A stretch of DNA of 36,586 bases from positions 5,673 to 42,258 of the forward strand of contig PGXE01000007.1 in the NCBI GenBank assembly GCA_002838935.1, read 5' to 3'. Below, one piece after another: positions 1 to 32,789 of this stretch. Source of the DNA: Thermoplasmata archaeon HGW-Thermoplasmata-1 (lineage in GTDB: Archaea > Thermoplasmatota > E2 > GCA-002838935). The translations under genes and the position numbers were made by a program. A model generated the notes under the pieces. That model had not been told where the DNA came from. It did no database searches and was given only the letters and a program-made list of their open reading frames with translations. The number at the start of each line of letters is the position of its first letter. Position 1 is the stretch's first letter.

Positions 1-469
1 TTACGAACAAGGAAATGAAACCAAAACATTTCAACGAGCAGGCACCACGAAAAAGAATCCGGTCACTTCTGTAGGTCAACTACATCTTACCCTTCACAAA
101 ATTATTGACAGAAAAAAAGAGAAAAATATATTTCGACCCATTGAAGATCAGATAGAATTCAACGGGAAGAAGAAATATCAAGAAGACATCTCCATGATTA
201 GCGCGGAACTCGCTGCCAAGATGACCTATCGTGATACAACAAATGAGGCAAAACTGTTTCTGAATGATTTTCCATGCCCCAGCACCGTGAACCGATGTGT
301 AATCGAATACGGAGAAGAACTCGCAAGATTCAACAAAGATGCTACAAAAGGAGCTGATGTTAAAAAACGCCTGTGGACAAGTGCGCCATACGATAACGAC
401 TCGCTAGTGAGACGAACCGCTTACTTTCTTAAACAGTTTTTCCATTTCCTTCTTCGATGCTGTATATAG
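1..469 (+). pseudogene. Truncated transposase remnant (N-terminal part, ISLre2/UPF0236-like), partial at window edge
   Basis: Frame 2 is open from base 2 to the stop at 467-469 (...VGQLHLTLHKIIDRKKEKNIFRPIEDQIEF...MISAELAAKMTYRDTTNEAKLF...STVNRCVIEYGEELARF). From memory only, the layout resembles the N-terminal half of ISLre2-type transposases. No DDE catalytic region follows, and the tail (FFHFLLRCCI) runs into the next gene start. Confidence 0.3.
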
Positions 470-1527
470 TCTCCACCACCGGCTTATGCAACCTTTGCTG
501 CCGCTACTGCGGCGGCTCCATCTCAGAAGAGGTCATGCCGCACGAGGTGCAATACGATATTGAGAAGCTTGCGCGGCTTGTGGGCGACGACCCCGATGCA
601 ACGGTCGCTTTCTATGGCGGCGAACCTCTCTTGCGAATACCGCTCATTTCGGAAATGATGGAAAAACTGCCTGCGAAGCGTTTCGTGGTGCAGACGAACG
701 GCACCCCGCTCGACGAATTGCCGCAGGAGCTTCTTTGCAGGTTCGACGCGATTTTGGTCTCGCTCGACGGCAGGCGGCACGTGACGGACACGAATCGGGG
801 CGAGGGAGTATACGACAGGGTCGTTGCCAACGTCGAAAAAATACGACCCATCTTTGGCGGTGACCTAATAGCGAGGATGGCCGTAAGCGAGGAGTGCGGC
901 ATCTACGAGGACGTAATGCACCTGTTCAGCCTAGACTTCGACCACGTCCACTGGCAGCTAAACGCAATCTGGGCGTCCGACGACTCGTGGACCGATTTTG
1001 GAAAGTGGATATACGAATCCTACAATCCCGGCATAACACGGCTAAAGGAACTCTGGCTTGGCGAGATGAAAAAAGGAAAAATCCTCGGAATCGTGCCGTT
1101 TCAGGGCATAGTCCGCCGCATGTTCTTTGGCGGCGAGGGCGTGCCCTGCGGTGCCGGAAGCACCAGCTTTGCGGTAGCGACAGACGGGCGGATACTCGCC
1201 TGCCCGATTTGCGGCGAATACGAATGGAACCGCATAGGCGAACTGGGAAAAGAGACTGTGCAGTCGCTAAGGGGCAGGGTCGGGATCAACGAGCCGTGCA
1301 GAAGCTGCGACGTTTACGCGATATGCGGCGGCCGCTGCCTCTTTGCGAACAGGGAAGGGCACTGGAAACAGGAACAGTTCGATCTCGTGTGCATGACGGT
1401 TCGCCACCTCGCAAGGGAAATGCGGGATGCAAAGAAACGCATCGACGAACTTCTCAAAGCAGGCACAATAACGCGAGAGCAGTTAGATTATCCGCAGTTC
1501 AACAATACGACGGAGATAATACCGTAA
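457..1527 (+). CDS. Radical SAM / SPASM-domain protein (archaeal AF_0577-like putative peptide-modifying enzyme)
   Basis: CX3CX2C cluster motif C11-NLC-C15-RY-C18 (CNLCCRYC). GGEPLL SAM-binding motif. C-terminal Cys-rich SPASM-type region (CGAGSTS...CPICGEY...CRSCDVYAICGGRCLF). The AF_0577-like family name is from recollection. Confidence 0.8.
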   Translation: MLYIVSTTGLCNLCCRYCGGSISEEVMPHEVQYDIEKLARLVGDDPDATVAFYGGEPLLRIPLISEMMEKLPAKRFVVQTNGTPLDELPQELLCRFDAILVSLDGRRHVTDTNRGEGVYDRVVANVEKIRPIFGGDLIARMAVSEECGIYEDVMHLFSLDFDHVHWQLNAIWASDDSWTDFGKWIYESYNPGITRLKELWLGEMKKGKILGIVPFQGIVRRMFFGGEGVPCGAGSTSFAVATDGRILACPICGEYEWNRIGELGKETVQSLRGRVGINEPCRSCDVYAICGGRCLFANREGHWKQEQFDLVCMTVRHLAREMRDAKKRIDELLKAGTITREQLDYPQFNNTTEIIP

Positions 1528-1659
1528 GATATGGCGCCCGCGAAATTTTGCCTTCGCCCATCCGCCTAAATTATACCGGCACAACATTTTAATTGAGCCA
1601 TTTTATTCATAGTCGAAGGTATAAGTGATTAACAGTTCTATACCTATGCCTTCGCCATA

Positions 1660-2035
1660 GTTGAGGAAGTTGAAAACTTCCGAAATAGAACTAACCCGAA
1701 CGAAGCGAGGGTTAGTGCGTGTTGAGGAAATGCATAGCAGTTCCGAAATAGGGCGAATGTCGAAGCGAAAGCGAAACATTCCGCCCGTGTCGAGGAACTG
1801 CGAAGCAGTTCCGAAATAGGGCGAATGTCGAAGCCCGTGTTGAGGAATTTTGAAAAATTCCGAAATAGGGCCAATCCGACCAAATGGAGGATTAGTCCGT
1901 GTCGAGGGATTGCGTAGCAATCCTGAGAGAATGAATCGCAAAAGCGATTCTGTTCGTAAGTTACGGTTGAGGGATTACGAAGTAATTCCGAAATTCCGAA
2001 ATAGAACAAATTGCATAGCAATTCTGTTCGTGACG
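1660..2035 (+). repeat. Tandem array of six 50-68 nt units, each with a conserved-flank hairpin A and a variable hairpin B (candidate structured RNA or REP-like element)
   Basis: Units start at GAGG 1663, 1724, 1792, 1842, 1904 and 1969. Each has a 5' flank GTGTYGA, a hairpin of 7-8 bp (GG..CC) with a GAA/ATA/GTA loop, and a 3' flank GAAATAG. Stem interiors differ between copies but stay complementary. See findings. Confidence 0.75.
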
Positions 2036-2096: not shown

Positions 2097-2816
2097 ATGG
2101 AAAAAGGAAGCGTCGTAAAGATCGATTACGAGATGTGGGTCGAAGGCAGCGAAAAGCTTTTCGACACCACGAAGGAAGATGCAGCAAGGAACGCAGGCAT
2201 TCACAACCCGCAGATACCGTACGCGCCGCTCACCACCATAATCGGCGACGGCAGGCTCATAAAAGGGTTTGACAGCCACCTGCTTGCGGCGGAGATCGGA
2301 AAGGATTACGAAGTTGCGATTTCCGCAAAGGACGCCTACGGTGCGCACGACCCTTCCAAGGTCCAGACCATCCCGCTCATCCAGTTCAAGAAGCAGAACG
2401 TGAAGCCGCACGTGGACATGCAGGTGAACCTCGGTCAGACGCAGGGGCGGATAAGCCGCATAACCGATTCGAGGGCGTTTGTCGACTGCAACCACCCGCT
2501 TGCGGGCAAGTCGCTCAGATATCGGTATACCGTAGTCGGCGAGGCGAAGGACCCTTGCAAGAAGGCGGGTTGGATAATGAAGGCGAATTACCCCCGTGAA
2601 GTCGAGTTCGAGTCAGAGATAGACGGCAAGAGCGTAACGATAAAGGTCCCCGAGCCCTGCAAATACGACGTGCAGATGTGGCCTCTTGCGAAATACAGGG
2701 CGGTAGGCGACCTTCGCAACTTCGGCGGATTCGAGAACGTCTTCTTCGTCGAGGAATACATAATGCCGCAACAGCCGGAAAAGGAAGTTGTGGCAGAAGG
2801 CAAAAAAGAGGATTAA
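2097..2816 (+). CDS. FKBP-type peptidyl-prolyl cis-trans isomerase, long archaeal/SlyD-like type
   Basis: FKBP core with insert-in-flap layout (VKIDYEMWV...FDTT...IIGDGRLIKGFDSHLL...DAYG...VDCNHPLAGKSLRYRYTVV). ATG at 2097 is preceded by GGTGAT (2086-2091). The track's 2037 start lacks an RBS and adds a non-homologous leader. Confidence 0.85.
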   Translation: MEKGSVVKIDYEMWVEGSEKLFDTTKEDAARNAGIHNPQIPYAPLTTIIGDGRLIKGFDSHLLAAEIGKDYEVAISAKDAYGAHDPSKVQTIPLIQFKKQNVKPHVDMQVNLGQTQGRISRITDSRAFVDCNHPLAGKSLRYRYTVVGEAKDPCKKAGWIMKANYPREVEFESEIDGKSVTIKVPEPCKYDVQMWPLAKYRAVGDLRNFGGFENVFFVEEYIMPQQPEKEVVAEGKKED

Positions 2817-2858
2817 GCGAGATAAATCGCCGCAACCCGGATTTTTTTTAAATCCTTC

Positions 2859-3293
2859 TCATTCTTCCAGTATCGCCGCCTTCAGCTTGTGGCCTTCAGG
2901 GCATTCGACCTTCTTTCGCTCTATTTTTATTATCTTGTAGGTCTTGCCCGCGGCGAGCGCGTCTGGGTGGCAGAGCCGCCAGTTGCCGCATCCGCGGTTC
3001 TTGCAATCTTCGGGATTCAGGGTGATTGCCGTGCCGTTCGCCGATTTTTCCGGTATCGCGGCCTCGTGCGCCGTCACTTCCGTCACCTCGACGACCCTTG
3101 CCCCCGTATCGTGCAGCAGGCAGTCGTGGAGCTTTTCCCTTATCGCCGCGACCTCGTACATCTTTCCAGCTTCCAGATTGAAGCAGATGGTCCTCAATTT
3201 GCATTCCTTGCACGTCTGGGTATGCCCGAGATAGACGAACCTTCCCCCTTTTTTTGCCTGGCATTCGCCAAGAAGAGTGATTATATTCGGCAT
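2859..3293 (-). CDS. UPF0179 family protein (archaea-specific, Cys-rich)
   Basis: MPNIITLLGECQAKKGGRFVYLGHTQTCKECKLRTICFNLEAGKMYEV...HDCLLHD..ARVVEV matches the UPF0179 pattern as I remember it. Length of 144 aa is typical. Confidence 0.7.
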   Translation of the reverse strand: MPNIITLLGECQAKKGGRFVYLGHTQTCKECKLRTICFNLEAGKMYEVAAIREKLHDCLLHDTGARVVEVTEVTAHEAAIPEKSANGTAITLNPEDCKNRGCGNWRLCHPDALAAGKTYKIIKIERKKVECPEGHKLKAAILEE

Positions 3294-3395
3294 TTTTCAT
3301 TTCTCCGTTGATTTTTAAGCAGATGCGGAAAGGGAGGCGATAAGCCGCCGTAGCCGCATTTACGATTTTTTATAAATCCGATTTTTGAACCCGCG

Positions 3396-4463
3396 TTACG
3401 CCACGCCCGTTGCCTTGAGCAGCCGGTCGGCGGCCTCTTTTGTAAGCCCCTTGTCGCCGAGTATCGTATAACGGTCCGGCCTGAGTTCATGCGCATGCAC
3501 GAGCGCCTCGATAAACTTTGCCCGCGGCATCCCGAGCTCCTTTGCGGTCGTGGGCGCGCCTATCAATTTCAGCGCGTTTCGTATCATCTTCCAGTCGCCG
3601 CCGTGCAGGTACATGGTGAGCATCGATGAAACGCCGCACTGCTCGCCGTGCATCGCCGTTCCGGGTGAAAGCCGGTCTAGCATGTGGCTTATCATGTGCT
3701 CGGCCCCCGACGCCGGGCGGCTGCTTCCGGCAACAGACATCGCGACACCCGAGACTATAAGCGACTTTATGACAGTCCAGCTTGATTCCTCGATGCCGGG
3801 TTTTATGTATTCCGCGTTGTCGAGTATGAGCATTGCCGCGGTCTTTGAGAGCACTGCCGCAAACGAACTGAACTCCTCGTTTCGCAAGCGTCGAGCAAGG
3901 TCCCAGTCCATGACCGCGGTGAGATTGGATATCGCGTCCGCGCACCCCGAGGCGAGGCTGCGGTACGGCGCCTTGCTTATGACCGCGGTGTCCGCAAGGA
4001 TGGAAAGCGGTGCGTTCGCGGATATGGATACCGAGCCCACCTCCTCTTTGATGGAGGCTCTCGGGCTTGCCACGCCGTCGTGGGCCGCGTTTGTCGGCAC
4101 CGAGACGAAGGAGACGCCGAACTTGTAGGCCGCAAGCTTCGCCACGTCTATTATCGAGCCGCCGCCGACGCCGATGAAGAACTCGGATCCGACCTTCTTT
4201 GCGTGATCGACAACGCGCTTGACCTCTTTCATCGTCGCCCCGTGAGTCACGTTTATGACGTCGACCGCGTATCCGTTTTTTTCAAGCGTTTCCGTTATCT
4301 TGTCGCCCGCAAGCTTCTTTGTAATCGGGTCGTATATGACCAGCGGGTCGTTGCCGGCGTGTATCTGGTCGCACAGTTCCGCTATCCTGTTCGTCACGTC
4401 GTGCCCGACGAGGACGTTTCGCGGGAATACCATGACCTTCCACTTGTCGAAAATCTCTTCCAT
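3396..4463 (-). CDS. egsA: Glycerol-1-phosphate dehydrogenase [NAD(P)+] (archaeal lipid backbone synthesis)
   Basis: 355 aa. Fold motifs of the Fe-ADH/DHQS superfamily (GVGGGSIIDVAKLAAY, PTNAAHDGVASPRASI, metal-binding His residues near the C-terminus). GGTGAT RBS directly upstream of the ATG at 4463. TATA-like ACTATAAAAAAATA further upstream on the - strand. Confidence 0.88.
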   Translation of the reverse strand: MEEIFDKWKVMVFPRNVLVGHDVTNRIAELCDQIHAGNDPLVIYDPITKKLAGDKITETLEKNGYAVDVINVTHGATMKEVKRVVDHAKKVGSEFFIGVGGGSIIDVAKLAAYKFGVSFVSVPTNAAHDGVASPRASIKEEVGSVSISANAPLSILADTAVISKAPYRSLASGCADAISNLTAVMDWDLARRLRNEEFSSFAAVLSKTAAMLILDNAEYIKPGIEESSWTVIKSLIVSGVAMSVAGSSRPASGAEHMISHMLDRLSPGTAMHGEQCGVSSMLTMYLHGGDWKMIRNALKLIGAPTTAKELGMPRAKFIEALVHAHELRPDRYTILGDKGLTKEAADRLLKATGVA

Positions 4464-4564
4464 CGAATCACCAGCACTATCATTTACCGGATAACACTAT
4501 TTTTTTATAGTCTTTATGCTTTCCCCGAAGCGATTTGCCTTATATTGCGGCTACAGATTCGGCG

Positions 4565-6103
4565 ATGGTGAAACAAATGACGGATTCCTTTGATGAAATG
4601 ACGAAGTGCTGCGGCGACTGCGATTGCGATTGCGAAAACCAAAGCGACGATAAGACGGACGCAGGGTGCCGCTGCACCAAAGATGCCGCCGCAAACGCGC
4701 ACACGGGCGGCCATTTCGGCTGCGCCGAAGATTCGGTCGCGCATGGCGATTCGGGTTGCACCTGCGGCTGCGGCGAAGAGGGCAGTGGGACAAGCAAGGG
4801 CGCAGGCAAGAAGAAAGGCGCCTGCTGCAGAAGCGGAGATGCCACAGAAAAAGGGTGCCCCGCCTCGCGGGCTTGCGATGCCCTCTCGCGCTTCTACCGC
4901 AACCACAACACCTTGTTCTGGCTGCTCGCCGTCGGGTTGCCGCTCCTTGCCCTCGTAATCGGATGCATAGTCCGCCCCGAGATATTCTACGACCAATTCG
5001 TCTGGAAATTCTACTGGGGACCGATAGTCGCGGACGGCACCGGGCATCCGGTCTCTCACAACGGGGTCGTCGCCTCATCCGGATACAACGTCGTGAATAC
5101 CATCAGCTGGGCGGTATTGATGATAGGCATCCTCGTATGGCTCAACAAAATCTTCCGGAGGTTCTCCATAAAAGTCGACCTCCGGTTCATACCTGGCGTC
5201 GTGGTCTACATCGTGATGGGTGCGATACTGCACGTCATGGAGGACAGCGGGATGTTCCTCGCGCCGCTAAAGTTCTTCCTCATAACCCCGCTCATATATC
5301 TGGAGGTCGCCGCGGTCGCGCTTCTCGTCCTTGCGGTGGGAATCCTGCTTGGAAAGGCGCATGCAAGGAACCGGAAGGTTGCGCTCATCGACTGGGCAGG
5401 CATCCTCGTTCTCGCGAACGTGGCCTACCTCATAACCTACCTCAACATGCCAGGCCAGATAATCTTCATGGCAAACCCGCTCGTTCTACTCGTTGCGAGC
5501 GTCCCCGGTTTCCTGATGGTGTTCTTCAGGGAGCGCAAAACCGGCGGGATGAATCCTGTCCACGTCATGACCGCAGGCGGCGTCGTCATGCTCATACTGC
5601 AAGTATATCTGGTGTTCCACTGGATGGTCATAGGCAAGTGGGCGTATACGGAAGGGACCCACGCATGGATACTTCTCCCCGTAATTCTCGGCTCGGCCGC
5701 GATAACGGGTGCGGTCTACGGCATCGCAAGGGCGCTGAAGAAAAAGCATTCGGGCGCAGCCGCATACATGATGCCGCTCAACCTGATGATGATATTCGCG
5801 CAGATGACGGACGCGATAGCAAGCAGCATGGGCATAGATTTTTTCCCCTACAGCGAAAAGCACGTGCTGCCAAAGATGCTCATCGACTTCTTCGAAAAGC
5901 TCGGCTTAAGCCTTCCCGCGACAACCGCGATGATGCCGTTCAAATTTCTCATCGTCATGCTGGTGATATACATGATAGACGTCGCTTCGAAAGAAGAGGT
6001 CAAAATGTATCCGAACATGGTCGGGCTTGTGAAGATGGCGATAATAATGCTGGGGATAGGCCCCGGTATCAGAAACGTCGTGAGGCTTGCGATGGGGGTT
6101 TAG
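4565..6103 (+). CDS. Polytopic membrane protein (DUF63-like) with N-terminal Cys/His-rich extension
   Basis: Long ORF. The N-terminal ~105 aa hold 15 Cys. Next comes FYDQFVWKFYWGPIVADG and many hydrophobic segments, which I recognise as DUF63-like from memory. The start is uncertain (TTG 4535 in the track, ATG 4565, ATG 4577). Confidence 0.6.
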   Translation: MVKQMTDSFDEMTKCCGDCDCDCENQSDDKTDAGCRCTKDAAANAHTGGHFGCAEDSVAHGDSGCTCGCGEEGSGTSKGAGKKKGACCRSGDATEKGCPASRACDALSRFYRNHNTLFWLLAVGLPLLALVIGCIVRPEIFYDQFVWKFYWGPIVADGTGHPVSHNGVVASSGYNVVNTISWAVLMIGILVWLNKIFRRFSIKVDLRFIPGVVVYIVMGAILHVMEDSGMFLAPLKFFLITPLIYLEVAAVALLVLAVGILLGKAHARNRKVALIDWAGILVLANVAYLITYLNMPGQIIFMANPLVLLVASVPGFLMVFFRERKTGGMNPVHVMTAGGVVMLILQVYLVFHWMVIGKWAYTEGTHAWILLPVILGSAAITGAVYGIARALKKKHSGAAAYMMPLNLMMIFAQMTDAIASSMGIDFFPYSEKHVLPKMLIDFFEKLGLSLPATTAMMPFKFLIVMLVIYMIDVASKEEVKMYPNMVGLVKMAIIMLGIGPGIRNVVRLAMGV

Positions 6104-9852: not shown

Positions 9853-10602
9853 ATGAACGACTTTGCCGAGACGCTGGGGCTTGGCGGCGTTGCGGACCAA
9901 ATCGGCCTCGAACCGTGGATTCTCCTGCTCCTGCTTATATTGCTCATCGTAATCCTGCTGATAATAATCATAATATTACTTCTGAAGGGAAAGAAGGCGA
10001 TAAGGATATACGCCCTTGAAAAGCTGCACGAGGTCGACCCCGGCGAAATAGCCGAGTTCCAGATAACCGTGCAGAATCAGTGCAAGCAGAAGCCAAACGG
10101 CAAGAACCGCCTCATAATCGGACTCGAGAGAATTGGCGACCTCCCGTCCGGCTGGAAGGCCGAGATGAACAAGGGCTCCTTCGACCTCGACGGCGGTGAA
10201 TCCGGCGAACTGAAGCTGACTGTGAAAACCTCGCCTTCGGCTTCGATGGACGAGTGGGCGAACATAACCGTCAAGGCCACGCCGCAGGAGAAGCCGAAAA
10301 AGGCGGCGGCGGTCGCGACGATAACGATGATAAAGGAGCACAAACCTGATCTCGTCATAACGAACGTCACCCACGCGCCTGTTTCGTTCAAGGGAGGCGA
10401 CGTAGTCACCACTTCCGCCACGGTCGAGAACAACGGCGATGCGCCCGCGGAGAACATTGCGGTCGTGTTCTACGTGGACGGCGAGGAGCGCGGACGCCTC
10501 GGCAACCTCAATCTCGTTCCCGGAGCGAAGGCGAAAGTCAAGTTCCCGTGGAAGGCGGGCGAAGGGGAGAACCACATCAACATGAAAGTAGAGGGCGTGT
10601 GA
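9853..10602 (+). CDS. Membrane-anchored protein with NEW3-like and CARDB domains
   Basis: Strong TM (WILLLLLILLIVILLIIIIILLL) followed by KGKK. Then EIAEFQITVQNQ...LPSGWKAEM... and a CARDB-like module (DLVITNVTHAPVSFKGGDVVTTSATVENNGDAPAENIAVVFYVDGEE). Confidence 0.6.
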   Translation: MNDFAETLGLGGVADQIGLEPWILLLLLILLIVILLIIIIILLLKGKKAIRIYALEKLHEVDPGEIAEFQITVQNQCKQKPNGKNRLIIGLERIGDLPSGWKAEMNKGSFDLDGGESGELKLTVKTSPSASMDEWANITVKATPQEKPKKAAAVATITMIKEHKPDLVITNVTHAPVSFKGGDVVTTSATVENNGDAPAENIAVVFYVDGEERGRLGNLNLVPGAKAKVKFPWKAGEGENHINMKVEGV

Positions 10603-10708
10603 AAAAGTCGCCATCAGGCGATTTTTAAACAAGCCGAACATCAGTGAGGACGCGTGAAAAAGTCGCCATCAGGCGATTTTTAAACAAGCCGAACATCAGT
10701 GAGGACGC
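10599..10708 (+). repeat. Perfect 55-bp tandem duplication, each copy carrying a terminator-like hairpin plus T-run
   Basis: GTGAAAAAGTCGCCATCAGGCGATTTTTAAACAAGCCGAACATCAGTGAGGACGC occurs at 10599-10653 and again at 10654-10708. The hairpin is TCGCC/GGCGA with A/T extension, followed by TTTTT. The first copy includes the stop codon of the upstream gene. Confidence 0.9.
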
Positions 10709-10872
10709 GTAATCCTAAAAACCCATTTTTCAAAATCCCCACTTTCCCGCAACACTCTTTTGATTTTTTCACATCCTTTTTCGATTTTCCTCATCCTTAT
10801 GGCATTTTCACCCTCAAAACGTTTTTTAACCAAAACTCAATGCTGAATCATCAAAACTAAGCTGGTTTGACA

Positions 10873-11757: not shown

Positions 11758-11807
11758 TCCTCAATCCAAACCACCTCTCTTTTTAAAAGAGCATATCTCC
11801 ACAATCC

Positions 11808-11896
11808 CGTATCTTCAGAATCTCTCGCAAAAATCTCGTATCTTCAGAATCTCTCGCAAAAATCTCCGTATCTTCAGAATCTCTCGCAAAAATCTC
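11808..11896 (+). repeat. Three tandem copies of a 29-30 bp unit upstream of the PGF-CTERM gene
   Basis: CGTATCTTCAGAATCTCTCGCAAAAATCT(C) starts at 11808, 11837 and 11867. Confidence 0.9.
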
Positions 11897-11973: not shown

Positions 11974-14202
11974 ATGAAAAACGTCTATTTCGTAGTTCTG
12001 ATAGCAAGCGCGTTACTGTTGCCGATGATAATGCCGACTGTTCCGGCAGCCGCCGGAGACCCCAAGGTCTGGGATACAGGCTCGATAAACGACCTTGCGA
12101 TGTCGGGCAACGGCAAGTTCCTCGTGGCAGGGTGCGCGGACAAGCAGGTTTACGCGATCAACTGGAACAGCGATTCCGTCGAATCCTACGATACTGCGAC
12201 CGGTCCTCTTCGCACCGACGGAGGCGCGATAAACGCGGTCGACGTTTCAGACGAGGTTGAAACAGGCGAATATTATGCTGCGGCCGCATGCCAGGACAAT
12301 TCGGTCTATTTCCTCAAGAGGACGAGCGCCGCGTGGATTGGAAGTATCGATTTAAGCAGGCCGGTTTCGACAGTCGCCATATCGGATAACGGCATGTACG
12401 CGGTCGCCGGCACTGCCGTCGAAACATGGCGCACCGAGAACGCGAAGATACACCTGATGACGAGAAGCGGCGATGTGGTCACAGAGACAAAGGGCACTTC
12501 CAACCCGTGGCCGTTCACGGTTAAAGGAAAATCCTCGGTGGAGCCAACCAGGAACATAAAAGCCATTGAACTGTCGGGCGACGGAAAATACATGGTCGCC
12601 GCGGCAGGCGGCTACGCCTACCAGTTCGAGAGAAGCGTTGGCGAGCAGTGGAACAGGTCGTTCACAAGCGACGTCACCGACGTCGCAATATCAAATGACG
12701 GCGGATATTATGCCGTTTCGACAGGTAACTTTATTCACGGCTTTGTAAGGGCGACTCGGCAGGGCTGGGCGTATAACGCGGGCGCAAGCGTAAGCAAGAT
12801 CGCGATATCCGGCGACGGCAAACTGATAGCCGCCACCGCCGGATCAAAACTCGTCGTTCTCGCATTCAACGCATCCGCAGCGCAGCCTCTCTCGCTAAAA
12901 TGGAGCTTCTCGGCGCCAAACGCGCTTAGCAGCCTTGCCATTTCGAAGGATGGCAACTACGTATCGGTTTCAAGCGGCAACAACGCATATTACTTCCATA
13001 CGAGTTCGAACACTCCCATCCGGAACTACGCGGGCGGCATGAGCGCGGTCTGCGTGGACGACAAGGGCGCATATCACGCGACCGGAGGCTCAAGCAAGGT
13101 CTATCTCATGGAGCCGGTCTACGGAATAGAGATATCGTCGCAGTCGCACACGGCATCGCTTTTGCCTGGCGCGAACAGGACATTCCAACTGACCGTAACC
13201 AACAAAGGCAACCGCTACGACCCGGTTTCGCTTTCGCACGCAGGCACCTACATAGCGTGGGGCGCGTTCGACACTTCGCCCTTAACGATTTCCCCCGAAA
13301 ATTCGGCGCTGTTCAACTACACGGTCGCGGTCCCCGACAAGAACTCGCTAGGGGATTACGGCGCGGCAAAGGCGGGCACGATAGCCCTGATACCGGTTAA
13401 GGCGACCTCCGGCCTCTCTTCGGCTGTGCACGGCTCACTCGACCTCGAAGTGAGCGTCCTGCAGAGATACAGCGCCTCGGTGCAGCCTGCGAGGGTTGCG
13501 GCTTCCGCCGATGCGGGGAGCGGCGCCACCCTCTCGTTTACGATACTGAATTCTGGCAACGGCGGCGATAAGATAAAGCTCTCCGTAAGCGAGACCACCT
13601 CGACAGGATGGCCATATACGCTTGGCGCAAGCACGCTCGAACTCGGATCCAACAGGTATCAGGAGGTCACGCTCACGGTCACGCCGCCGGCAAACGCTCT
13701 TGACGGTTCGCAGGCAGAGTTTCGGATAAGCGCAAAACCGCAGAACGGCGCCGGAGCCGCAGCAATCGCGGAAGGAGCGGTCGCGGTCAATCCGGTTTAC
13801 GGCGTAAAACTCGAAGGCGAGAGCGCCATCAGCGTGAAGGAAGCGTCTGCCGTGCAGCACTCGTTTAGCGTGAAGAACACGGGCAACCTCGATAGTACAT
13901 ACCTGCTTTCGGTATCTACCTCGGCGAGCGGCTGGGAATATCATCTGTCCGAGGAATCGCTCGAAGTTTCGGCAGGTGCGGCAAGAACGGTCACCCTGAC
14001 GGTCGTGCCGCCGGAGGGCGCCAAAGCAGGCGCCAAGGCGACTTTTACCATATCTGTTGTTGCAGAGGACAGCAGCGCGACATCTTCGACGCTCGCAGTC
14101 AGCGCGGTAGTGGAAAAGGTCGGCGGGATACCGGGTTTTGAAGTCGCATTCGCGATTCTCGGCGGGCTTTTCGTGGCGATTGCCACAAGAAGGAAGCGCT
14201 AA
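11974..14202 (+). CDS. Secreted beta-propeller + NEW3-domain surface (S-layer-like) protein with PGF-CTERM sorting signal
   Basis: Signal peptide (VVLIASALLLPMIMPTVPAAAG). Repeated blades (MSGNGKFLVAG, ISDNGMYAVAG, LSGDGKYMVAA, ISNDGGYYAVS, ISGDGKLIAAT, ISKDGNYVSVS). NEW3-like modules (TSTGWPYTLG, SASGWEYHLS). C-terminus GGIPGFEVAFAILGGLFVAIATRRKR is a canonical PGF + TM + basic tail. Confidence 0.85.
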   Translation: MKNVYFVVLIASALLLPMIMPTVPAAAGDPKVWDTGSINDLAMSGNGKFLVAGCADKQVYAINWNSDSVESYDTATGPLRTDGGAINAVDVSDEVETGEYYAAAACQDNSVYFLKRTSAAWIGSIDLSRPVSTVAISDNGMYAVAGTAVETWRTENAKIHLMTRSGDVVTETKGTSNPWPFTVKGKSSVEPTRNIKAIELSGDGKYMVAAAGGYAYQFERSVGEQWNRSFTSDVTDVAISNDGGYYAVSTGNFIHGFVRATRQGWAYNAGASVSKIAISGDGKLIAATAGSKLVVLAFNASAAQPLSLKWSFSAPNALSSLAISKDGNYVSVSSGNNAYYFHTSSNTPIRNYAGGMSAVCVDDKGAYHATGGSSKVYLMEPVYGIEISSQSHTASLLPGANRTFQLTVTNKGNRYDPVSLSHAGTYIAWGAFDTSPLTISPENSALFNYTVAVPDKNSLGDYGAAKAGTIALIPVKATSGLSSAVHGSLDLEVSVLQRYSASVQPARVAASADAGSGATLSFTILNSGNGGDKIKLSVSETTSTGWPYTLGASTLELGSNRYQEVTLTVTPPANALDGSQAEFRISAKPQNGAGAAAIAEGAVAVNPVYGVKLEGESAISVKEASAVQHSFSVKNTGNLDSTYLLSVSTSASGWEYHLSEESLEVSAGAARTVTLTVVPPEGAKAGAKATFTISVVAEDSSATSSTLAVSAVVEKVGGIPGFEVAFAILGGLFVAIATRRKR

Positions 14203-32613: not shown

Positions 32614-32789
32614 GCAATCGGCGTCATGATTATATAGCGCCGCACCCCAAATATGACCTCGTTTTGCATAGCGCGTTTCGTGTCGCAATCGCCGTCATGA
32701 TTATATAGCGCCGCACCCCAGATATGACCTCGTTTTGCATAGCGCGTTTCGTGTCGCAATCGGCGTCATGATTATATAGCGCCGCACCC
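32614..32789 (+). repeat. 2.5 tandem copies of a 71-bp unit, each containing a TATA-box-like ATTATATAG
   Basis: Unit GCAATCGGCGTCATGATTATATAGCGCCGCACCCCAAATATGACCTCGTTTTGCATAGCGCGTTTCGTGTC starts at 32614. A second copy at 32685 has 2 mismatches. A third copy at 32756 covers the first 34 nt. Confidence 0.9.
32772..32778 (+). promoter_or_regulatory. Putative TATA box (TTATATA) of the SCP2 gene, in the last repeat copy
   Basis: Centre lies ~34 nt upstream of the ATG at 32809, which implies a very short leader. Confidence 0.4.

Follow-up and report, generated by a model that had tools for sequence, protein, structure and literature searches.

Bacterial extragenic palindromic repeats have been connected with mRNA stability, with genome plasticity and with domesticated HUH transposases. 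REP elements act both in mRNA, where they protect 3′ ends, and in DNA. To our knowledge, no REP system has been described in archaea. DNA mini-hairpins of the type GCGNAGC / GCGNNAGC are found at the phage G4 origin, at ssiA and at N4 vRNAP promoters, and stable hairpins with C-GNA-G triloops are typically made of DNA, not of RNA (PMC13037366). The hairpin array examined here comes from the uncultured Thermoplasmata archaeon HGW-Thermoplasmata-1, on the contig that encodes proteins PKK86457–PKK86484. Among known kinds it most resembles the bacterial REP and BOX extragenic palindromic repeats. A search of the literature returned no description of such archaeal arrays, nor of the HGW-Thermoplasmata-1 MAG. 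The whole stretch of DNA that was analyzed, 36,586 nt, is referred to as the window.

Layout of the hairpin array

The array occupies positions 1656–2029 on the + strand, where six A hairpins alternate with six B hairpins. Taken as a whole it comprises about 13 small hairpins in tandem, upstream of an FKBP chaperone gene. Every unit is oriented head-to-tail on the + strand, and the spacing of the units is irregular (63, 68, 50/68, 62 and 65 nt). A preliminary description of the locus had placed GAGG at 1663, 1724, 1792, 1842, 1904 and 1969, and all of these coordinates are correct. The six A stems, their loops, the CTAACCC/GGGTTAG pair at 1691–1715 and the non-Watson-Crick positions G1906.T1924 and G1973.T1987 were likewise as claimed. 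A B hairpin had been assigned to the unit and is present in every one, with the correction that the array extends to 2029 by way of B6.

The A hairpins have 7–8 bp stems and mostly GNA triloops (GAA in three, then GTA, ATA and TGAA). Their feet and outer stem are conserved as CGTGTYGA-GGAA...TTCC-GAAATAG. The foot keeps a tandem G.A/A.G mismatch and has not been turned into a perfect palindrome. Loops and linkers are A/G-rich. The + strand of the array has no T5 run; the − strand has one at 1853–1857.

Three pairs of sister units can be distinguished: A1B1~A4B4, A2B2~A3B3 and A5B5~A6B6. In the first pair, unit U1 (1656–1691) contains hairpin A1, GGAAGTT-GAA-AACTTCC (1665–1681), between the feet GTTGA and GAAATAG, as found by sequence and by covariance model (E 3.4e-5). 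Unit U4 (1835–1871) contains A4, GGAATTT-TGAA-AAATTCC (1844–1861), which rests on sequence, covariance model and sister test and differs from A1 by a G-C to T-A double change. Hairpin B1 (1688–1718), GAACTAACCC / GGGTTAGTGC, was identified by repeat family D2 and by folding; it forms 9/10 pairs around an 11-nt loop and has CTAACCC/GGGTTAG as its core. Its sister B4 (1868–1898; sequence and sister test), GGGCCAATCC / GGATTAGTCC, contains G1870.T1896 and a C1872.A1894 mismatch.

In the second pair, both A hairpins were assigned by sequence and covariance model. Unit U2 (1717–1754) contains A2, GGAAATGC-ATA-GCAGTTCC (1726–1744), with one A.G mismatch, and unit U3 (1785–1822) contains A3, GGAACTGC-GAA-GCAGTTCC (1794–1812), with a perfect stem. 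The apex of A3, GCGAAGC (1800–1806), is an exact mini-hairpin motif (PMC13037366). Hairpin B2 (1751–1786; sequence and fold) is built in two tiers: its outer stem is GGGCGAATGT / ACATT(C)CGCCC, and inside this sits the mini-hairpin GCGAAAGC (1765–1772). Comparison with other assemblies revealed that B3 (1819–1836) is shortened in the window copy to GGGC...GCCC.

In the third pair, again assigned by sequence and covariance model, unit U5 (1897–1934) contains A5, GGGATTGC-GTA-GCAATCCT (1906–1924), and has a degenerate 3′ foot (GAGAGAATG). Unit U6 (1962–2003) contains A6, GGGATTAC-GAA-GTAATTCC (1971–1989), and its 3′ foot carries an 8-nt duplication in which GAAATTCC is followed by GAAATAG (period-8 repeat, 1984–2002). 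Hairpin B5, GAATCGC-AAAA-GCGATTC (1933–1950), was found through repeat family D7 and folding. The array ends with B6, GAACA-AATTGC-ATA-GCAATT-(C)-TGTTC (2004–2029; repeat families D5 and D7, sister test), where a C-G pair of B5 has become T-A by a double change. Besides that of A3, the mini-hairpin motifs capping array hairpins are GCGTAGC (1912–1918) and the inner tier of B2.

Stem pairing is maintained by compensatory substitutions

RNA folding of 1640–2060 gave z −8.7 for the + strand and z −7.1 for the − strand, with 0/100 shuffles as good. The covariance-model check proposed for the array was carried out with a model trained on four units; the two units held out were recovered at E 8e-10 and 3e-5, and no further match was found in the window. 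In the A helix 98% of the cells are paired and 3/8 pairs show changes on both sides. The covariation score of this helix was reached by 0/500 shuffles, and controls with slid partners collapse. These results bear out tandem hairpins with conserved single-stranded feet and variable, complementary stems, and confirm that the array is real and non-random.

A permutation test was carried out with the units treated as sister duplicates. Pairing was retained in 37–39 of 40 bp, compared with 26.7–28.1 expected (P ≤ 2e-5), as the earlier claim of compensatory change required. Pairing is maintained by compensatory double substitutions, significant even between sister duplicates. A covariation signal can come from one genome, without cross-species conservation. 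The covariation does not extend to the flank helix UGUU/AAUA that had been suggested, as the U-to-C changes in U3 and U5 are uncompensated.

Over both arrays of the genome (see below) eight GNA triloops lie on the + strand and none on the − strand (0 TNC). The RNA z-score is better for the + strand at both arrays. Folding with DNA parameters gave about equal results for the two strands. The + strand is the better candidate because all eight GNA triloops are on it and because its RNA z-score is better. The G.U wobbles had been said to fit the + strand only, which is overstated, since the C1872.A1894 mismatch of B4 becomes a wobble pair only on the − strand. With the second array included, wobble pairs number about 5 (+) versus 1 (−), which is not significant, and G.U pairs are a weak mark of the + strand.

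The array varies between assemblies and has a counterpart 8 kb away

The array is the only site of difference between otherwise identical assemblies. No differences were observed over window positions 1–1630 and 2100–5816. Inside the array the assemblies differ by an 18-nt indel, by SNPs and by the arrangement U1-B1-U2-B4'-U2-B4'. Compared with three further assemblies of the organism, the window copy has lost 18 nt of B3; in those assemblies B3, with its 18 extra nt, is identical to B2. Four contig ends fall inside the array; such arrays break metagenomic assemblies.

A second hairpin string lies 8 kb to the left (L042 190–600, z −17.9). It has the same feet, CGTGT...ATAG, and a short hairpin alternates with a two-tier hairpin as in the first array, with a 71-nt period. 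The units differ by an A-T to G-C compensatory change, and the caps are C-GAA-G and C-GTA-G on the same strand as in the first array. Because the second array is upstream of a − strand tRNA, a common leader role for both arrays is not consistent. A foot-plus-stem pattern scan of 45 kb found only the two arrays and one coding match, compared with 0.2 matches expected, and foot-bearing units number about 7 and about 4 in the two arrays. Sequence similarity between the arrays is weak (best common word 11 nt, E 0.057). Other intergenic tandem repeats, of 29–71 nt, are located at window positions 10591–10710, 11803–11896 and 32614–32789 and at L042 1–127 and 369–598.

Searches for related sequences

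A scan of the whole window against Rfam 15 at gathering score detected two tRNAs only. A permissive Rfam scan of 1450–2150 returned only CRISPR-DR25 (E 0.94, − strand of B5) and DdR1 (E 8.5). The array is in no described family, as the preliminary description had supposed. Exact-pattern scans for unit A gave 12 matches in the genome collection and 13 in the metagenome collection, equal to chance and stemless except for one Methanomassiliicoccales unit, and 5 in the viral collection, all chance. No match to plasmids or phages was found with blastn. The one possible unit, in a Methanomassiliicoccales MAG (class Thermoplasmata), has identical feet, flanking B-like hairpins and a covariance-model E of 4.5e-4, and came from a scan whose number of matches equaled the chance expectation. 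It is absent at five orthologous loci in relatives of 70–82%. The nearest homologue of the FKBP protein (41% identity) has no array upstream of its gene.

Proposed interpretation as a family of palindromic repeats

The best reading is that these hairpins belong to a repeat family, the archaeal counterpart of REP/BIME in bacteria or of BOX in pneumococcus, and do not make up a single isolated RNA gene. With a probability of about 0.4, the array represents a REP/BOX-like family of extragenic palindromic repeats that is specific to this lineage, with hairpins on the + strand and a foot that is probably recognized by a protein. A REP/BIME-like cluster was among the options of the preliminary description. 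It gained support from the second array with the same feet and from the strain-level variability. Two features depart from it: the units are direct and not inverted, and the called genes of ~45 kb include neither an HUH or RAYT gene nor a transposase or any other candidate partner.

The sister units, together with the indels and reshuffling between strains, show that modules of 50–71 nt, each with a short A and a longer B hairpin, are gained and lost by tandem duplication and unequal recombination. The feature that is kept would be a hairpin extruded from the + strand, with a sequence-constrained foot, CGTGT(YGA)GGAA...TTCC(GAA)ATAG. The distal stem would be free to change only where pairs are kept, and a C-GNA-G loop would form the cap. 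The pattern of conserved feet and freely changing paired stems leads one to expect a protein that would read the foot and the shape of the helix, not the inner stem sequence. The likeliest arena may be a + strand transcript running from the AT-rich segment at 1567–1630 through the array toward the FKBP gene, in which the hairpins could be repeated protein-binding, processing or nuclease-blocking modules. Under the same explanation they may instead serve in ssDNA, as REP/RAYT-like or priming-type hairpins.

If the family reading holds, extragenic palindromic repeats are extended to archaea, and the locus offers a compact case of compensatory hairpin evolution within a single array. Such a case would help to separate structural selection from mutational self-correction. 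We regard it as improbable that Thermoplasmata carry an undescribed hairpin-repeat system, with stems that vary freely but stay paired and with the CGTGT...ATAG foot read on one strand by a dedicated enzyme. An RNA-processing nuclease that trims array transcripts to unit-size hairpin RNAs of ~60 nt would be one such enzyme, and a Y1-HUH-type ssDNA enzyme that spreads the modules another. If true, it would give archaea their first REP/RAYT-like or ToxI/CRISPR-like (non-Cas) repeat system.

Alternative explanations

The array may instead be a dedicated structured RNA of this locus, a possibility that we consider unlikely. It would be a ~400–450-nt 5′ leader of the FKBP26-type mRNA, or an ncRNA reading through into FKBP, whose hairpins would tune translation or stability or would serve a regulator as sponge or scaffold. 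In that case the array would be particular to one gene and would stand outside any genomic repeat family. Sequence and domain calls place an rSAM gene, with its stop at 1527, and the start of the FKBP26-type gene (2047–2099, ATG 2097) on the + strand on either side of the array. Since the FKBP gene has a Shine-Dalgarno sequence, AAGGTGAT (2085–2092), it needs a leader. An AT-rich + strand segment at 1567–1630, between the rSAM stop and the array, contains the TATA-like boxes TAAATTATA (1570–1578) and GTATAAGT (1619–1626), recognized from sequence and by-eye comparison with other such boxes, and T4 runs occur nearby at 1546, 1587 and 1601. We infer that the segment may both terminate rSAM transcription and supply the promoter of a + strand transcript that enters the array. 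No T5 terminator run lies between the array and the FKBP gene. The + strand fold, the A/G-rich loops and linkers and the significant compensatory changes are also in keeping with an RNA. A scan for sigma-70 promoters and intrinsic terminators, a method unsuited to archaea, gave 0 matches.

Against a leader or ncRNA, other genes of the window appear to be short-leadered, with TATA-like boxes 35–48 nt before the ATG when compared by eye, and the FKBP gene has a weak TATA-like GATAACTAAT likewise placed at about −50 to −40. The closest FKBP homologue lacks the array, the locus is hypervariable between strains, and the same feet are found in the second array, whose locus is unrelated and precedes a tRNA on the opposite strand. 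The C-GNA-G triloops are of the kind typical of DNA hairpins (PMC13037366). Coding function was rejected. The + frames are full of stops, and a long − strand ORF over the array is a composition artefact, with the units in different frames.

It is doubtful that the array is a neutral minisatellite without function. On that reading the genome would readily form intergenic tandem duplications of 29–71 nt, the array would be an old one, and its palindromes would stay complementary through intrastrand template switching (quasi-palindrome correction) as the DNA is replicated, with no part for selection. Intergenic tandem repeats are dense in the region, the strain indels and reshuffling are confined to the array, and under DNA parameters the two strands fold about equally, all as a minisatellite would have it. 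Uniform mutation, however, does not predict that the feet and outer GGAA/TTCC are far more conserved than the inner stems, and the G.A/A.G mismatch at the foot remains uncorrected. Loop orientation is strand-biased (8 GNA versus 0 TNC), and the feet are shared by the second array and perhaps by another genus.

Double-stranded DNA sites, whether transcription factor operators, an FKBP upstream activating region or a replication-origin or iteron-like region, are a very improbable explanation. GGAA...TTCC dyads are indeed repeated upstream of a promoter-like box. Unit-specific complementarity of the inner stems has no part in duplex recognition, however, the spacing is irregular, and neither orc1/cdc6 nor a local GC-skew switch is nearby. 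An archaeal oriC, with ORB or mini-ORB dyads beside orc1/cdc6 and a skew switch, was rejected in particular, with no Orc1/Cdc6 in the gene lists and no skew inflection at 1.5–2 kb.

The chance that this is a degenerate or atypical CRISPR-like array, with A and its feet as 29–33-nt repeats, B as ~20–39-nt "spacers" and Cas6-type processing, is very small. The periodicity of 50–68 nt, the hairpin-forming repeat with its GAAAT end and the strain-variable, assembly-breaking locus would fit. Against this, the repeats are only 72–86% alike and carry compensatory stem changes. The "spacers" are homologous self-complementary hairpins (B1 shares 77% identity with B4, and in other assemblies B2 and B3 have the same sequence). 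No Cas family was found among Pfam/NCBIfam matches or gene calls over ~45 kb, and no Rfam CRISPR-DR match to hairpin A, the sole one being that on the opposite strand of B5.

A cluster of K-turn or box C/D-like RNAs binding L7Ae, also put forward in the preliminary description, is hardly credible. The foot of the A hairpin allows a tandem G.A/A.G, GUGUUGA is C-box-like, U5 contains CUGA, and the weak DdR1 match (E 8.5) is to a snoRNA. No unit, however, has the order C stem, 3-nt bulge, G.A/A.G beside a canonical stem, and NC stem (UUCC is followed by GAA-AU, not NNN-GA), and the A4 of the C box, which forms a sheared pair in canonical RUGAUGA, is U in GUGUUGA. CCGA is 17 nt from the putative C box versus 12, C'/D' boxes are lacking, the D-box sequence CUGA is present in U5 alone and is off by one in register there, and the DdR1 match is noise (14 bits versus a gathering score of 70).

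H/ACA and BHB readings were checked against the sequence and rejected. In integrons, attC sites have R''/R' cores (RYYYAAC ... GTTRRRY) that are complementary to each other, and gene cassettes separate one site from the next; here GTTGAGG lacks a 3′ CCTCAAC partner, and the units abut with no ORFs between them. Termini of an IS or MITE were dismissed, there being no transposase domain in the neighbourhood. The only direct repeat, TGCCTTCGCC (1549 and 1647; chance expectation for a repeat of this kind about 0.2), bounds an 88-nt AT-rich segment without inverted termini.

Comparison with known systems

Type III toxin-antitoxin loci share with this locus tandem short structured RNA-like repeats right before a protein gene. 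In ToxI loci, however, near-identical 34–45-nt units precede a terminator and the gene of an endoribonuclease toxin. The units examined here are diverged, no terminator was found and the downstream gene encodes an FKBP26-type PPIase chaperone. A ToxI-like antitoxin was therefore rejected. Exact motifs of the DNA mini-hairpins cap array hairpins, and C-GNA-G caps recur in the second array. The known mini-hairpins are single and lie in phage or plasmid ssDNA initiation sites, whereas the hairpins here are in tandem chromosomal arrays.

The BOX elements of Streptococcus pneumoniae (boxA-boxB(n)-boxC) are unrelated in sequence, have terminal A and C modules, are dispersed like MITEs in >100 copies, and do not have compensatory stem evolution between tandem units as a hallmark. 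Like the array, they are modular intergenic repeats in which the tandem number of one module is strain-variable; they form stable stem-loops once transcribed, and they adjoin ordinary genes, which they can influence.

REP/BIME elements (REPINs) differ in their foot (GT[AG]G versus CGTGT...ATAG), in their inverted pairs compared with head-to-tail units and in their proteobacterial hosts, and in the 45 kb of the archaeon that were covered only two arrays and no RAYT gene were seen. Both consist of short, imperfect palindromes in extragenic DNA that cluster in the gaps between genes (array stems are 7–10 bp), and in both the 5′ foot of each hairpin carries a short conserved sequence. In both, stems differ among subfamilies while complementarity is kept, the hairpins are strand-specific, and copy number and arrangement vary between strains.

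The hairpin array and its setting

The 569-nt intergenic gap lies between a TIGR04084 radical SAM/SPASM gene (rSAM; 457-1527, + strand) on its 5' side and an FKBP26-type peptidyl-prolyl isomerase gene (FKBP; ATG at 2097, + strand), which has a Shine-Dalgarno sequence, AAGGTGAT, at 2085-2092. The layout claimed for this gap in the preliminary description matches the sequence, with GAGG starts at 1663, 1724, 1792, 1842, 1904 and 1969. Each of the six A units (U1-U6) has a 5' foot, (C)GTGTYGA, a hairpin of 7-8 bp that opens with GGAA or GGGA and closes with TTCC, and a 3' foot, GAAATAG; this 3' foot is degenerate in U5, and in U6 it includes an 8-nt duplication. The loops are GAA (three copies), GTA, ATA and TGAA. 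B hairpins of 6-10 bp alternate with the A hairpins, the last of them (2004-2029, + strand) ending the array, which totals ~13 hairpins within 375 nt. Repeat finding recovered the same unit families.

The TIGR04084 gene is of the AF0577 'peptide-modifying' radical SAM/SPASM type (window 1-1527 region). It is preceded, with a 13-nt overlap, by a 212-aa gene called on the JGI contig L042 that has no Pfam match, and a precursor peptide gene was not evident next to the rSAM gene. The sequence TGCCTTCGCC is present twice, just past the rSAM stop (1549-1559) and just ahead of U1 (1647-1656), and is 10/11 complementary to GGTCGAAGGCA at 2138-2148, within the opening 50 nt of FKBP coding sequence. Judged by complementarity, these segments could form a long-range pairing enclosing the array and the start codon, for which the chance expectation is ~0.1-0.2.

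Folding and covariation

The + strand of 1640-2060 folds as RNA at -153 kcal/mol (z -8.7) and the - strand at -129 kcal/mol (z -7.1); no shuffle equalled the native RNA fold on either strand. With DNA parameters the strands are equally exceptional (z -6.8 and -7.9). A covariance model trained on U2, U3, U5 and U6 recovered the left-out U4 (E 8e-10) and U1 (E 3e-5) and, with filters off, no further units in the 36.6-kb window. In the model alignment 98% of cells are paired, 3/8 pairs show changes on both sides, and one A-helix pair takes four forms (UA, AU, CG and GC). The covariation score was reached by 0/500 shuffles, and the signal was lost when partner columns were slid by 1-3 positions.

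The preliminary description had raised the possibility that covariation would disappear once the units were treated as recent duplicates. Sister hairpins, the tandem-duplicate pairs inside the array (A1/A4, B1/B4, A2/A3, A5/A6 and B5/B6), were compared by randomly re-dealing the observed number of stem substitutions. The signal survives: 37-39/40 pairs are kept versus 26.7-28.1 expected (P <= 2e-5), and the sister comparisons include four clean double substitutions and one mismatch-to-pair change. The hairpin array is a solid, well-controlled structural observation.

A second array

Contig L042 reaches 8.4 kb left of the window (L042 8360 = window 1). At L042 190-600, some 8 kb before the window begins, an unbroken hairpin string adjoins a tRNA-Arg(CCU) gene (L042 113-188, - strand) and folds as RNA with z -17.9 (+ strand) and -12.5 (- strand). 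It holds 3.3 copies of a 71-nt unit, CGTGT-[TGCCCRT...AYGGGCA]-ATAG-CAC-[two-tier hairpin]; therefore the CGTGT and ATAG feet and the alternation of short and two-tier hairpins are common to both arrays. Unit 1 differs from the others by a compensatory A-T to G-C double change. The non-repeated part has four + strand hairpins capped C-GAA-G or C-GTA-G, one with two G.T wobbles. Scanning ~45 kb of this genome for the feet ('CGTGT, stem >= 6 bp, ATAG') found only the two arrays and one coding-region match, shuffles averaging 0.2, and ~100 kb of other Thermoplasmata gave no match. At the level of plain sequence the arrays resemble each other weakly (best common word TTAGTGCGTGT, E 0.057). A T5 terminator-like sequence, CCGTTTTTACGG, lies 3' of the second array at about L042 628-640.

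Strand and molecule

Several observations point to the + strand as the relevant one. Its two arrays together carry eight GNA triloops, against none of the TNC type (which would read GNA on the - strand), and a C-G pair closes seven of these hairpins. RNA z-scores are better for the + strand at both loci. Wobbles had also been taken to mark this strand, and about five do, but C1872.A1894 wobbles only on the - strand and the difference is not significant. The array has no T5 run on its + strand and one on its - strand (1853-1857).

A-rich loops, neighbouring genes on the + strand, TATA-like boxes at 1570-1626 and no terminator ahead of FKBP all fit an RNA, and would suit a dedicated FKBP leader or noncoding RNA. 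However, the array motifs GCGAAGC, GCGTAGC and GCGAAAGC are exact 'mini-hairpin' motifs, found at ssDNA initiation sites and far stabler in DNA form than in RNA form (PMC13037366). Furthermore, the second array is situated upstream of a tRNA on the - strand, and thus the common property is the DNA strand, not leader position. A dedicated leader or noncoding RNA is possible, though unlikely.

Variation between assemblies and other tandem repeats

Exact protein matches (PKK86457 and its neighbours) assign the contig to Thermoplasmata archaeon HGW-Thermoplasmata-1. Over 1-1630 and 2100-5816 the window agrees at every base with five other assemblies of this organism, and all differences from them are confined to the array. 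In three, 18 extra nt in B3 make it identical to B2; another has the unit order U1-B1-U2-B4'-U2-B4', plus SNPs. Four contigs begin or terminate within the array. The ends of L002, L003, L042 and L043 (JGI, NCBI and Logan assemblies) fall within window 1700-1850. Because contigs of independent assemblies break inside the array, the window may show a collapsed copy of it, with a unit number other than that in the population. Gain, loss and reshuffling of units concentrate at this locus.

Near-perfect intergenic tandem repeats with units of 29-71 nt also occur elsewhere in this genome. A 55-nt unit (x 2.2; 10591-10710), directly past a gene stop, bears a terminator-like hairpin in each copy, AAAAAGTCGCC-ATCA-GGCGATTTTT. 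A 29-nt unit (x 3.2; AATCTCCGTATCTTCAGAATCTCTCGCAAA; 11803-11896) fills part of the gap upstream of a WD40/Ig surface-protein gene at 11974. Each 71-nt unit (x 2.5; 32614-32789) upstream of an SCP2-domain gene includes a TATA-like GATTATATAG, giving up to three promoter-like boxes. At L042 1-127 a 63-nt unit stands twice in perfect tandem and takes in the final 14 nt of the tRNA-Arg(CCU) gene; this repeat may represent either an att-like duplication or one more minisatellite, and since L042 begins within it, further copies may exist. Such turnover and company would fit a neutral, self-correcting minisatellite, a reading that we consider rather improbable.

Relatives

The array has no match among Rfam families or in plasmid and phage collections. 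Pattern scans of genome, metagenome and viral collections gave a chance number of matches, with the stem in none but one Methanomassiliicoccales MAG unit, GCGTGTTGA-GGAAA-CTTAT-TTTCC-GAAATAG (covariance model E 4.5e-4). This unit, flanked by B-like hairpins, belongs to an intergenic cluster of ~7 hairpins (DAOVXH010000054, 7225-7455, + strand, z -4.0) that has a T7 run at its end. In the minimum-energy fold of the locus, the unit does not close on itself: its interior is paired with a complementary 13-nt stretch located 70 nt upstream. Because the unit is missing at the equivalent position in five relatives (aminotransferase 70-82% identical), it is sporadic at best. The closest FKBP homologue, at 41% identity, shows nothing unusual upstream. 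These results give no basis for a cross-species comparative test. As proposed earlier, no described family accounts for the array, and no description of one like it was found in the literature searched. It is an orphan of a single, poorly sampled lineage.

Interpretation and comparison with known systems

We favour, at a probability of about 0.42, a lineage-specific family of extragenic palindromic repeats. Its modules would spread locally via tandem duplication and recombination, and the feature maintained would be the + strand hairpin. A protein probably recognises foot and helix, since the feet and outer stem are invariant and the inner stems are free but paired. The repeated GGAA...TTCC dyads could instead mark double-stranded DNA sites, a reading to which the free but paired inner stems leave very little room. 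The palindromic repeats may act in the + strand transcript heading to FKBP, with ssDNA as the alternative.

A CRISPR-like locus would alternate repeats and spacers, but the repeats here covary and agree at 72-86%, the 'spacers' are hairpins homologous to one another, and no cas genes lie within 45 kb, which makes it exceedingly improbable. The K-turn or box C/D geometry suggested earlier for the feet has just as little chance: in no unit do a C stem, a 3-nt bulge and G.A/A.G follow one another in the required order, U replaces the essential A4 of the C box, and the spacing of the boxes does not fit. Core sites without a complementary partner and the lack of cassettes dismiss attC; diverged units and a downstream chaperone gene dismiss a ToxI-like element. 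Termini of an IS or MITE, also considered earlier, are contradicted by the absence of both a nearby transposase and inverted termini, and an oriC by the absence of a nearby orc1/cdc6 gene and a skew change. A coding role is rejected as well: stop codons close the + strand frames, and a long - strand ORF runs through the units in differing frames. REP/BIME and BOX elements are closest in kind to the array, from which they differ in feet, orientation and host domain.
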